A stretch of DNA of 32,000 bases from Nanobdellota archaeon (GTDB taxonomy: Archaea; Nanobdellota; Nanobdellia; Woesearchaeales; SM23-78), in NCBI GenBank assembly GCA_038046485.1, contig JBBSWA010000047.1:1-32000 (forward strand). Direction: 5' to 3'. The notes below the pieces were generated by a model. The model was not told where the DNA came from, did no database searches, and worked only from the letters and a program-made list of their open reading frames with translations. A program made the translations under genes and the position numbers. Position 1 is the first letter of the stretch, and each line of letters opens with the position of its first letter. Below, piece after piece: positions 19,248-26,346 of this stretch.

Positions 19248-19275
19248 GCCTCCGGCGAGAGTTGCACTCAGGGCC
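19248..19275 (-). pseudogene. orphan 3' end (T-arm plus acceptor strand) of a tRNA
   Basis: The minus strand reads GGCCCTGAGTGCAACTCTCGCCGGAGGC, 23/28 identical to positions 45-72 of the tRNA-Thr at 20296-20367. It starts immediately after the LAGLIDADG stop codon. Confidence 0.65.
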
Positions 19276-20268
19276 TTATGTATCTTTGAGTTTACTTAAG
19301 TGGCGCTGATTACTAAACCCGACGATCTCTATGAATCTTTTACAGTTCTGAACGCCATTTATCTGGATTTTCCTGAAATCTGACGTTATGGTTGCATTTA
19401 TTTCAAAGCCTCTTAAAATGTCGTAAATTTGCGCCATAAGATGCTTGCTAACCATCTGTAGACCTATTCTTATGTAAGGCACTTTAAAGGTGGCTCTTTT
19501 ATCCCAGTATACGGAGCCATCTGTGTCAAATATACCTCGAATGCAACGTTTCAGCAGGAGAGAATCTGCTTTTAAGATCTCATCTGGAATAACAACAGAA
19601 TAGGCTTTTTTACCTGCTGGAAACTTGAACCTTTTCGTCAATAGATAGTGAAACTCTTTAGAATGAATGGTTAGCCTCAAAGCGTTCTCTTTGCTCGTCA
19701 AAATCGGATTTGACCTTGGACTGATGCCCTTAATGTAAGACATTAAGGTTGTGTAATATTCCTTGTCCAGCTGAGCGTGCCCTGTAAATTGGATTGTATA
19801 AGCGCCTCCGTACTTGTTTGTAAAGCCATCTCCTATGAAAGCTCCGATTAACTCGCATAGCCCAAGTGTTAAAGGCATATCAAACTTGAAATGATACTTC
19901 AGCACTTTTGCTGATTGCGCTCCTAACTTTCTTCCTTTTCGGAAGATGTCTGGATGCTTTCTAGATGTAGAAACACCTCCTTTTCTTCGACCCCAATCTT
20001 TCTCTTTTAGAACGATTTGCTCGAAGAAAAAGTTCTTATCTTGATCTTTTACACAGGCTATGAAGTTTAAGAACATCGAATAAGGAATGGACCGCGTGGC
20101 TGATCGAAAAGTGTCTAATCTCGATTTATAGAGTTTAAAATGTTCTTGTACACTTTTCCAAGAACCGAATCTCGTTTTCAGAGCAGCGAAGAATTGATTT
20201 CTGATTTTATCGTTTTTAAAGAACACTCTCTTTGAAAGCAACTCAGGGGAAGTTTTTTTATTTTTCAT
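19276..20268 (-). CDS. double-motif LAGLIDADG homing-endonuclease-like protein
   Basis: Motif 1 is LIGAFIGDG and motif 2 is CIRGIFDTDGSV, about 100 aa apart. There is an N-terminal extension of about 130 aa. Confidence 0.8.
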   Translation of the reverse strand: MKNKKTSPELLSKRVFFKNDKIRNQFFAALKTRFGSWKSVQEHFKLYKSRLDTFRSATRSIPYSMFLNFIACVKDQDKNFFFEQIVLKEKDWGRRKGGVSTSRKHPDIFRKGRKLGAQSAKVLKYHFKFDMPLTLGLCELIGAFIGDGFTNKYGGAYTIQFTGHAQLDKEYYTTLMSYIKGISPRSNPILTSKENALRLTIHSKEFHYLLTKRFKFPAGKKAYSVVIPDEILKADSLLLKRCIRGIFDTDGSVYWDKRATFKVPYIRIGLQMVSKHLMAQIYDILRGFEINATITSDFRKIQINGVQNCKRFIEIVGFSNQRHLSKLKDT

Positions 20269-20295
20269 AAAAGACCTCTTTGGAAAAATAAAAAA

Positions 20296-20367
20296 GCCCC
20301 CGACGAGAGTTGCACTCGCGACCTGCGCTTTACGAGAGCGCCGCTATAGCTACTAAGCCACGGGGGC
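20296..20367 (-). tRNA. tRNA-Thr: tRNA-Thr (anticodon CGU), no encoded CCA
   Basis: 72-nt cloverleaf folded by hand: acceptor GCCCCCG/CGGGGGC, D stem GCT/AGC, anticodon stem GCGCT/AGCGC with loop CTCGTAA, T stem GCGAG/CTCGT. A TATA box lies 25 nt upstream and a T-run downstream. The T-loop (TGCAACT) and D-loop (no GG) are atypical. Confidence 0.75.
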
Positions 20368-20392
20368 ATATGTGCATATGAACATTGATTCC

Positions 20393-20400
20393 TATATAAA
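20393..20400 (-). promoter_or_regulatory. TATA box for tRNA-Thr
   Basis: The minus strand reads AAAATTTATATAGG, with 25 nt between the box and the tRNA 5' end. Confidence 0.55.
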
Positions 20401-20407
20401 TTTTCCT

Positions 20408-20428
20408 TAGCTACTATGCTACGGAGGC
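20408..20428 (-). pseudogene. orphan 5' end (acceptor strand plus D-arm start) of a tRNA
   Basis: The minus strand reads GCCTCCGTAGCATAGTAGCTA, 18/21 identical to positions 1-21 of the adjacent tRNA-Thr. GCCTCCG is exactly complementary to CGGAGGC in the 3' fragment at 19248-19254. Confidence 0.65.
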
Positions 20429-20440
20429 ATGGATGAGGAG

Positions 20441-20605
20441 TTAGGCTAATTTCTTCTTGATTTCTTCGGTAGGGACGGACTTCTGGCAAGTTGGGCAAAC
20501 GGAGTGTTTAGTCTTCTTCTTGCCTTCTTTCGTATATACATAGGTGCCTAGGATCTTCTTGAGGAAGGTCTCTTCGATTGTCTTTTTACAGAGTTCGCAC
20601 TTCAT
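20441..20605 (-). CDS. 54-aa zinc-ribbon protein (below the ORF-track cutoff)
   Basis: MKCELCKK...HSVCPTCQKS contains two CxxC pairs. The TATA box ctttatatac on the minus strand ends 23 nt before the ATG. Confidence 0.55.
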   Translation of the reverse strand: MKCELCKKTIEETFLKKILGTYVYTKEGKKKTKHSVCPTCQKSVPTEEIKKKLA

Positions 20606-25417: not shown

Positions 25418-25582
25418 GCACCGGTCGTCTAATGGTTAGGAGTGCTTAAGCAAGCGCTTAAGAACTAACAAATGCGAGCCTTCCAAGCTTGCGATCCGGG
25501 ACGTTCAAAATCTACGGGTTTTGACGCGGAGATTCGAAAGTGAAGGGAACGACCCCTTCCTGAACACATCCCGGCCGGTGCA
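25418..25582 (+). tRNA. tRNA-Gly: tRNA-Gly (anticodon UCC) gene with a D-arm BHB intron and an unexplained 69-nt T-loop insertion
   Basis: Elements present: acceptor GCACCGG/CCGGTGC plus discriminator A; D-loop AATGGTTA; anticodon stem CGAGC/GCTTG with loop CTTCCAA; T stem CCGGG (25496-25500)/CCCGG (25570-25574). A TATA box lies upstream and TTTTTT immediately downstream. Whether the T-loop insertion is removed is unknown. Confidence 0.65.
25441..25471 (+). other. 31-nt BHB-type tRNA intron at a non-canonical position (23/24, D stem)
   Basis: The central 4-bp helix GTTA (25435-38)/TAAC (25466-69) is flanked by 3-nt bulges GGA (25439-41) and AAA (25470-72) on opposite strands. The inner 10-bp helix (25442-51/25456-65) has one G-A mismatch and loop AAGC. 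Cutting after the second bulge nucleotide yields a D stem GTCT/GGAT and a canonical-length 5' half. Confidence 0.7.
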
Positions 25583-26213
25583 TTTTTTCTTTACAATAAT
25601 CTTCGTATTTTTTCTTTTTTATGGAATGATCAAATCCAATTTTTTTGAATTCTAAAAAAGACTCAGAAGGTATCCGAATCGTATAACATATTTTATATTT
25701 TAACTTCGTAGGTAGTCGATTATACAAAGTCGTCCTAATCCCTTCTAAGGCTAACATCTTTTGTATCGTTAAAACTGCTTTCTTATTTGTATTATAACAC
25801 ACAATGCAACTCTTATAAACACTTCCTTCATCATCAAAAATGGCTCTTAACCATATTTTTCTAAACCGTTCATTTTCAACGATCTCTTGAGGTATATCCC
25901 AATTGCTCCCATCAATATATTTCAACATTTTTAGCATGCAGTAAAGGGGCTTATTTCTTGCTTGAATTCTTCTTTTTTTATTATCTCGATATACGTATGT
26001 TTTTGGAAATAAACTCTTAATTGCTAGAGTCATTTTATCCAAAAGCTCTGGGCAGTAATTTGTATATTCAATTACATGTCTATAGAAAGGTTCAGTCATT
26101 CTAGAGTTTTTAATAGCCGAAGGGCTTCTTTTTTCCTTTTTCATGTACATATTTCCATCGCCGCACACATGTGCATGGATATGTACCAAGTTTTCATTCA
26201 ATTCTATCTGCAT
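25512..26213 (-). CDS. double-motif LAGLIDADG homing-endonuclease-like protein
   Basis: Motif 1 is IHAHVCGDGNM and motif 2 is WLRAIFDDEGSV. The ATG at 26213 is 20 nt after tttttataa; the track start at 26225 is a TTG. The last 24 codons or so run antisense through the tRNA-Gly 3' end and T-loop insertion. Confidence 0.75.
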   Translation of the reverse strand: MQIELNENLVHIHAHVCGDGNMYMKKEKRSPSAIKNSRMTEPFYRHVIEYTNYCPELLDKMTLAIKSLFPKTYVYRDNKKRRIQARNKPLYCMLKMLKYIDGSNWDIPQEIVENERFRKIWLRAIFDDEGSVYKSCIVCYNTNKKAVLTIQKMLALEGIRTTLYNRLPTKLKYKICYTIRIPSESFLEFKKIGFDHSIKKKKYEDYCKEKMHRPGCVQEGVVPFTFESPRQNP

Positions 26214-26346
26214 TCTGCCGCTCAAATAAATTGTTATAAAAATGACTTACCTTAACTTATATACCCCACCATAGAATGTCCAGTGGACTAAGTTACACCC
26301 CTTTTCTTCCGCAAAGTATTAAAGCCTTCTAAACCCACATGAGAGC

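Follow-up and report, generated by a model that had tools for sequence, protein, structure and literature searches.

To our knowledge, homing endonucleases are normally thought to persist in essential genes only by means of self-splicing introns or inteins, or otherwise to reside between phage genes. The locus described here lies on the minus strand of a 32-kb stretch of DNA (assembly GCA_038046485.1, contig JBBSWA010000047.1, positions 1 to 32 000; 'the window' denotes this whole stretch) from a DPANN (Woesearchaeota/Nanoarchaeota-type) groundwater archaeon. It comprises a promoter, a complete transfer RNA (tRNA) gene, tRNA-Thr(CGU), and a gene for a LAGLIDADG protein, all placed between the two ends of a second, broken tRNA gene. 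The locus is read here, at a probability of about 0.7, as a free-standing LAGLIDADG homing-endonuclease cassette that invades tRNA-Thr genes and compensates for the damage with a tRNA of its own.

In functional terms, the closest described system is SegB of phage T4, a free-standing endonuclease encoded in a tRNA gene cluster. It targets the T-psi-C stem-loop of tRNA-gene DNA and transfers its own gene, along with tRNA genes nearby, to genomes that are without it (PMC2330249). The window gene resembles SegB in lying outside any intron or intein and among tRNA genes, and its proposed action, cutting of a homologous locus with co-conversion of a resistant copy, would be the same. SegB is, however, a GIY-YIG enzyme of a phage, with neither nesting nor target remnants, whereas the present family is of the LAGLIDADG type and resides in cellular archaeal chromosomes, and the window cassette is nested within the broken target gene, to which it adds a promoter and a full substitute tRNA. 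I-DmoI, I-Tsp061I and PI-PfuI, from ribosomal RNA (rRNA) introns or inteins, share with the window protein the fold, the motifs, archaeal hosts and stable-RNA or essential-gene targets. These enzymes rely on RNA or protein splicing, whereas the window locus involves no splicing, and a spare copy is provided for the host gene that was destroyed. An extra N-terminal domain of about 125 aa further distinguishes the window protein from matches of the I-DmoI/I-Tsp061I type.

In collaborative homing, a free-standing cyanophage endonuclease (F-CphI) is said to act together with an intron that interrupts its target (psbA). A likeness may exist in that an intron at tRNA position 30–32, present in 7/11 cassette tRNAs of the layout termed type A below, could protect the donor copy; unlike in that system, the window cassette tRNA is intronless, and introns here would be of the bulge-helix-bulge type rather than group I. 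Anatomically, the closest case is that of Caldiarchaeum, where a tRNA-Thr 5′ fragment and an intact tRNA-Thr, 1.8 kb downstream of it, flank an insert that encodes a recombinase (PMC3293823). This tRNA-Thr(GGU) case and archaeal tRNA integrative elements have in common with the window locus an insert, a displaced fragment and a retained functional copy. Integrative elements employ tyrosine recombinases or transposases and usually duplicate no more of the tRNA than its att part, whereas the window insert encodes a LAGLIDADG protein only and carries a whole tRNA with a promoter. No prior description of the arrangement was found in full-text literature searches, the coverage of which was incomplete and which are not proof of novelty.

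Structure of the interrupted tRNA-Thr locus

The coordinates and counts of a preliminary description of the locus, made from the sequence alone, were rechecked base by base. The positions of the two tRNA ends, the 1132-nt gap between them, its contents and the identities of both ends to the intact tRNA were confirmed to the base. All features are on the minus strand. The 5′ remnant (GCCTCCGTAGCATAGTAGCTA, 20408..20428) corresponds to positions 1–21 of the resident tRNA-Thr(CGU), and the 3′ remnant (GGCCCTGAGTGCAACTCTCGCCGGAGGC, 19248..19275), which abuts the stop codon of the endonuclease open reading frame (ORF), to about positions 45–72. The whole insert (19276..20407, 1132 nt) stands in place of resident positions about 22–44 and contains, in order, a promoter, a tRNA, a T-run and the endonuclease gene. 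The putative promoter, of archaeal type and recognised from its sequence, occupies 20393..20407, with a purine-rich AGGAAAA resembling a B recognition element (20407–20401) directly before the TATA box TTTATATA (20400–20393), the end of which lies 25 nt ahead of tRNA position 1. The intact cassette tRNA-Thr(CGU) follows at 20296..20367, with its discriminator base at 20295; it was found by ARAGORN and by the Rfam tRNA model (58.5 bits, E 1e-11). Between this tRNA and the ORF lies the T-run TTTTTTATTTTT (20284..20295), likely an archaeal termination or attenuation signal, which could additionally act as a TATA-like element, lying about 20 nt ahead of the ATG; a T-rich stretch also follows the tRNA in the related loci L005–L009. 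The free-standing LAGLIDADG ORF (330 aa, 19276..20268, TAA stop at 19278–19276) is the sole ORF of at least 100 aa in the insert, which holds no integrase or transposase and has no room for one.

That the two fragments are the ends of one tRNA, rather than chance matches, had been proposed from their identity to the intact copy (18/21 for the 5′ remnant and 23/28 for the 3′ remnant), and this view was upheld. Apart from the intact tRNA itself, each fragment was the sole match in the window to its end of that tRNA at 3 mismatches or fewer, and 100 dinucleotide-preserving shuffles yielded no chance match to either end. The acceptor strands of the remnants (GCCTCCG/CGGAGGC) pair perfectly with one another (7/7). 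They carry U4:A69 where the intact copy carries C4:G69; this compensatory difference is real, and both versions are present in uninterrupted tRNA-Thr(CGU) genes of relatives. The elbow of the intact cassette tRNA is unusual, with D loop AGUAGCUA and T loop UGCAACU, and the remnants have the same odd D loop (AGUAGCUA) and T loop. The remnants total 49 nt and the outer, broken gene is without an anticodon arm. The T stem of the 3′ remnant contains a C:C mismatch at 49:65, of which there was none among the functional alleles checked by eye. Rfam, searched at E ≤ 10, showed neither a group I intron nor a further family in the region, and splicing signals were likewise absent.

Uninterrupted alleles and recurrence of the cassette

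Upstream of the cassette, and outside it, the ORF listing contains a zinc-ribbon gene (54 aa, CxxC...CxxC; 20441..20605, minus strand), and the 5′ remnant begins 12 nt past its stop codon. Zinc-ribbon proteins found upstream in relatives (4 sequences) were aligned and the alignment was used to scan metagenome contigs, giving 296 zinc-ribbon relatives, of which the best 80 loci (L085–L164) were analysed. The endonuclease gene was detected by tblastn in 0/80 of these closest loci. A full uninterrupted tRNA-Thr lay downstream of the zinc-ribbon gene in 64/80, in most of them starting 2–30 nt past the zinc-ribbon stop codon, and its anticodon was CGU wherever it was read. The uninterrupted tRNA of L133 (GCCTCCGTAGCTTAGTAGCTATAGCACCTGCCTCGTAAGCAGGAGGTCGCGAGTGCAACTCTCGCCGGAGGC, 184–262) matches the window remnants at 20/21 and 25/28 positions (45/49 in total) with an identical acceptor stem. 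With the uninterrupted genes standing directly after the zinc-ribbon gene, the 12-nt spacing in the window is the native one and the 5′ remnant sits at the native gene start. An uninterrupted allele in related genomes, proposed earlier as a check, is thus present at the syntenic site, and the possibility that the two fragments are never contiguous does not hold.

The occupied locus L005 was compared with the empty loci L132, L152 and L139, with which it has both flanking genes in common (84–85% amino acid identity for the upstream 584-aa gene and 70–74% for the downstream 502-aa gene). From the anticodon stem onward to its 3′ terminus, the L132 tRNA can be aligned with the 3′ remnant of L005; the CGT anticodon and a homologous intron fall within the aligned part. 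The cassette is therefore polymorphic for presence and absence among related genomes, in this comparison as in the 80 unoccupied loci. The CGU anticodons of the empty sites together with the CGT of the L005 remnant identify the broken resident gene, on sequence grounds, as tRNA-Thr(CGU), so that resident and replacement belong to one isoacceptor, contrary to the earlier suggestion, made from the GCC start, of a second Thr isoacceptor.

In the empty loci (for example L155, 1157–1234, and L133) a tRNA beginning 2–30 nt past the stop codon has no room for a promoter of its own, and the cassette-free tRNA is probably co-transcribed with the zinc-ribbon mRNA. As the cassette severs this link between mRNA and tRNA, it would have to bring its own promoter.

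Several variants were seen at these sites. In L005 (2667–2843) the zinc-ribbon gene and the 5′ remnant are separated by an additional 58-aa ORF, the frame of which continues into the remnant and ends at a stop codon there. L156 (2662–2900) is without an endonuclease gene; 91 nt separate its 5′ remnant from an intact tRNA, and a degenerate 3′ remnant comes 30 nt after that tRNA. In both L156 and L158 (2697–2964, likewise without the endonuclease gene) a duplicated 5′ piece (1–21) is followed after 90–200 nt by an intact tRNA-Thr(CGU); the two loci are possibly cassettes that have lost the endonuclease gene. A complete degenerate tRNA after the L005 ORF, which would start within the ORF tail KHLGI in a gapped alignment, was considered and rejected, that tail being conserved as protein in homologs.

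The recurrence of the arrangement was assessed in species-representative genomes, in which 188 relatives were found and 80 loci fetched, and to which a tRNA-Thr profile search and ARAGORN were applied. Homologs of the ORF of about 330 aa numbered 129, in DPANN archaea, the closest being 82% identical. Full tRNA-Thr touched or adjoined the endonuclease gene in at least 66/81 loci, the gene standing outside any intron or intein and beside a homolog of its presumed target, as is expected of a free-standing endonuclease. Many loci also retain 5′ and/or 3′ tRNA remnants, and four layouts recur. The arrangement is a trait of a whole DPANN protein family and is not unique to the window.

In type A (the window, L005–L009, L011–L013, L028 and L035) the order is 5′ remnant, TATA box, tRNA(CGU), endonuclease gene and 3′ remnant; L005–L009, L011 and L012 share this layout at 48–59% protein identity to the window endonuclease. 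The same seven loci have 5′ remnants homologous to that of the window, and in L005–L010 and L012 the fragment or tRNA is preceded by a zinc-ribbon homolog. In eight type-A loci the TATA box ends 22–26 nt ahead of tRNA position 1 while the spacer sequence is unconserved, and this fixed distance with a free spacer corresponds to archaeal promoter geometry. In type B (L014, L016, L018–L022, L027 and L032) an intact tRNA(CGU) comes first; a decayed 5′ remnant and the promoter ...CAGAAACACAAAATATATAAA follow, and after these the gene and a 3′ remnant. In type C (about 21 loci, 31–37% identity) a 5′ remnant and ACACAAAATATATAAA precede a gene that runs into an intact tRNA-Thr(GGU), the frame ending 15–39 nt inside the tRNA; an extra 3′ remnant is sometimes present, and in L059 the remnants pair perfectly with each other and not with the intact tRNA. 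Type D belongs to Iainarchaeum-type genomes. Here the gene extends into an intact tRNA-Thr(GGU/UGU) that lies in antisense orientation, and in several loci an antisense 3′ remnant precedes the gene. On the hidden Markov model profile, the first position of the 3′ remnants varies from 24 to about 60, and L007 retains only about 13 nt; truncation as variable as this resembles decaying DNA and not conserved exons. An nhmmer extension of the window 3′ remnant back to position 24 was set aside as probably an alignment artefact in the NxRHLxK coding motif.

Among type C loci, the protein end NKRHLDKI/V is conserved and is followed immediately by tRNA position 1 (L041, L039, L044, L047, L059, L061, L067 and L030). 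With the type C stop codon inside the tRNA, a co-transcript from which the tRNA had been excised would lack the stop of its frame, and tRNA processing could in this way be coupled to endonuclease expression.

In at least some loci the cassette tRNA appears to be foreign and not a local copy. The remnants of L005 and L012 carry the canonical T loop GTTCAAATC, their cassette tRNAs the variant GTGCAAATC, and this difference in type indicates import of the cassette tRNA from a lineage with another type of tRNA-Thr. The window cassette tRNA differs from its remnant in the 4:69 pair, which fits import with the cassette, possibly as a copy resistant to cutting. An insert, taken to be an intron, at anticodon-stem position 30–32 was present in the 7/11 type-A cassette tRNAs mentioned above and in 3/51 distinct cassette-free alleles, the loci being related and the ratio not an independent statistic. 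Two uninterrupted tRNA-Thr(CGU) genes, in L131 (853–974) and L134 (857–1034), contain a D-loop intron of about 30 nt at about 20/21, the same place as the cassette 5′ junction; a second intron, of 72 nt, interrupts the anticodon loop of L134. As a separate observation, the D and T loops of tRNA-Thr(CGU) in the window and in L085–L164 seem to co-vary, AGUAGCUA (which lacks the G18-G19 pair) occurring with UGCAACU (G at position 55), and relatives with the normal T loop GGTTCAAATCC having the normal D loop ..TGGTAGAGC.

Endonuclease, proposed mechanism and rival explanations

The 330-aa ORF was matched by Pfam LAGLIDADG_3 (E 1.4e-8) and contains two LAGLIDADG motifs, LIGAFIGDGF (D147) and IRGIFDTDGS (D250), the aspartates of which are invariant across 33 diverse aligned homologs. 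In an AlphaFold2 model (mean predicted local distance difference test score, pLDDT, 92) the stretch from about residue 130 to residue 330 folds into a monomeric double-LAGLIDADG core with the pseudo-dimeric alpha-beta-beta-alpha-beta-beta-alpha fold. The top Foldseek matches were I-Tsp061I (E 1e-9, template modelling (TM) score to target 0.70) and I-DmoI (TM score to target about 0.7). Intein endonucleases were also among the best sequence and structure matches, and WhiA and the bI3 maturase were among the structural matches. The N-terminal helical domain (residues 1–125) had no counterpart among the structural matches returned. Given the invariant D147 and D250 and the confident I-Tsp061I/I-DmoI-like fold, the protein looks like an active nuclease. 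A shorter form of about 200 aa, consisting of the LAGLIDADG core without the N-terminal domain, was seen in L063, L064, L068, L071, L075, L076, L078–L080 and L082–L084; these genes are likewise flush with tRNA genes, several of which contain introns.

The resident tRNA-Thr(CGU) is split after position 21, with a self-contained transcription unit in place of positions about 22–44. According to the mechanism proposed, the enzyme would cut cassette-free tRNA-Thr genes, and the break would be repaired by copying the occupied allele, homology being provided by the 5′ remnant or the cassette tRNA on the left, by the 3′ remnant on the right and by the flanking DNA. The likely cut site is in the region from the D arm to the anticodon stem, which is absent or interrupted in occupied alleles. 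Positions about 18–27 are missing in every locus of types A–C, and a recognition site is therefore expected to extend over the D arm into the beginning of the anticodon stem; the D-loop introns of L131 and L134 and the 30–32 inserts of cassette tRNAs fit this placement. The promoter-plus-tRNA module would maintain the supply of tRNA-Thr(CGU), such that disruption of an essential gene would be tolerated without an intron or intein. The cassette tRNA may escape cutting by sequence differences or, in many relatives, by its anticodon-stem intron. If repair drew on different pairing partners (on the left the 5′ remnant or cassette tRNA, on the right the 3′ remnant or a whole tRNA), the four layouts would interconvert, and precise loss could regenerate a plain tRNA gene.

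Several observations weigh against this interpretation. In the window's own population the cassette is fixed, 10/10 contigs with an identical M50 neighbour gene carrying it, and recent mobility is accordingly not documented there. The nearest homolog is 82% identical, and a near-identical cassette in a second genomic context was not found. No family member was present on viral contigs, where only distant, partial LAGLIDADG matches occurred, and thus no vector was seen. The module of 5′ remnant and promoter is conserved among layouts (CAGAAAC...TTTATAAA) and could reflect long vertical inheritance with promoter function in place of repeated invasion; long vertical descent does play a part in the history of the family. 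Protection of the window cassette tRNA is unexplained, as it is without an intron and its D arm equals that of cassette-free alleles such as L097. The left homology arm, at 21 nt, is short for recombination.

Fixation in the population and the conserved 5′-remnant/promoter module would also be accounted for by a local origin without homing, in which a tandem tRNA-Thr(CGU) duplication was followed by decay of one copy after an unrelated LAGLIDADG insertion or illegitimate recombination, the endonuclease being a passive or dead vertical passenger. Type B, with an intact tRNA directly upstream of the broken copy that holds the endonuclease gene, has the appearance expected of such a history. The compensatory pair in the window and the T-loop type in L005 and L012, however, separate the cassette tRNA from the remnant, so that the two are not recent local duplicates. 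Occupation is sporadic among close relatives (0/80 of the nearest zinc-ribbon loci), and a dead passenger is difficult to reconcile with more than 100 intact ORFs that keep the invariant catalytic Asp residues. A local origin is on balance unlikely, and so is gene conversion between tandem tRNA-Thr copies as a purely local event, an alternative offered by the preliminary description. The catalytic Asp residues are lost in WhiA, and a domesticated protein of that kind would be expected to lack them. Both residues are invariant here, which favours an active nuclease and makes it quite improbable that the protein is a domesticated LAGLIDADG DNA- or RNA-binding factor (like WhiA or the intron maturases) for tRNA-Thr expression or processing, with the fragments as conserved binding or processing sites. 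Such a factor would explain the very tight association with tRNA-Thr (66/81 loci), the extra N-terminal helical domain, the presence of WhiA and the bI3 maturase among the structural matches, the type C ORF that adjoins tRNA position 1 without a gap and ends at a stop codon supplied by the tRNA, and the conserved 5′ remnant beside the promoter. Most close relatives nevertheless have a plain tRNA and no such gene, and the 3′ remnants, with their stem mismatches and arbitrary points of truncation, look as decaying DNA would.

The remaining readings concern the fragments themselves. LAGLIDADG genes can be carried by archaeal rRNA introns, true D-loop introns occur at about 20/21 in L131 and L134, and the window remnants have perfect 7-bp acceptor complementarity; the fragments might on these grounds be exons or halves joined in RNA, across a giant bulge-helix-bulge or group I intron or as a split, trans-spliced tRNA, with the second tRNA and the ORF nested between them. 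The product would, however, be a 49-nt molecule with a T-stem mismatch and without positions about 22–44, that is, without the whole anticodon arm. Exons flanking a bulge-helix-bulge intron make up a complete tRNA, and split tRNAs have all arms, complementary leader sequences and promoters of their own, whereas the sole promoter element identified here lies downstream of the 5′ fragment. In relatives the 3′ fragments range from about 13 to about 46 nt and the 5′/3′ pairing falls to 5–6/7. Covariation of the two remnants across loci was examined as a sign of joint function and rejected, the pairing being 5–7/7 with positions 1–3 and 5 invariant. With no group I intron or Rfam family at E ≤ 10, joining in RNA is hardly credible, and the exotic split-tRNA arrangement raised previously is excluded by the missing anticodon arm and the arbitrary truncation. 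Partial tRNA duplications flanking an insert are also the hallmark of integrase-type integrative elements (pNOB8/SSV-type), and the Caldiarchaeum fragment, insert and intact tRNA-Thr (PMC3293823) offer a precedent in which the LAGLIDADG gene would correspond to cargo of an element or transposon remnant. The 1132-nt insert, though, holds the LAGLIDADG ORF only, with no integrase or recombinase gene, and this minimal unit is found again in dozens of genomes; such an origin is very improbable. Both the spliced or split tRNA and the integrase-type element are effectively excluded.

The earlier suggestion of a cassette that destroys a tRNA gene while delivering a replacement is supported by the empty alleles, the comparison of occupied L005 with its empty counterparts and the recurrence at 48–59% identity; a driving role of the endonuclease remains an inference. 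If the locus is an endonuclease cassette of this kind, a LAGLIDADG gene in cellular archaea appears to have solved the essential-gene problem by packaging a promoter and a replacement tRNA. Its recurrence in dozens of DPANN lineages and at all three tRNA-Thr isoacceptors points to a widespread, apparently undescribed class of small mobile element. Such cassettes would offer a natural model for the origin of archaeal tRNA fragments, of duplicated tRNAs and perhaps of non-canonical tRNA introns, as well as a source of enzymes that likely recognise tRNA-gene DNA. For annotation, tRNA fragments and tRNA-overlapping ORFs in DPANN genomes are to be treated as real features.

A wider proposition is put forward tentatively and is rather doubtful at present, namely that bringing a spare gene is a third route for a homing endonuclease into an essential gene and that such elements are an active force in archaeal tRNA fragmentation and intron gain. 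Were it true, the non-canonical tRNA-Thr introns (at 30–32, and in the D loop at about 20/21, which is the cassette junction) would have been kept because they break the target. According to an old idea, introns and split genes shield tRNA genes from mobile DNA, and the present family would supply a concrete case.

A second LAGLIDADG-like frame in the window

A second LAGLIDADG-like ORF of 237 aa (25512–26225, minus strand) contains the motifs VCGDGNMY and IFDDEGSVY. Its 3′ end enters a segment of about 165 nt (25420–25583, minus strand) that is closed by a 9-bp helix (AUGCACCGG...CCGGUGCAU) and folds better than shuffled sequences (z −2.9), with no Rfam family matched at E ≤ 5. Judged by these features, the 237-aa ORF may be another endonuclease gene in or beside an unrecognised RNA gene. 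The SRP54 gene lies about 1 kb from this ORF and segment.

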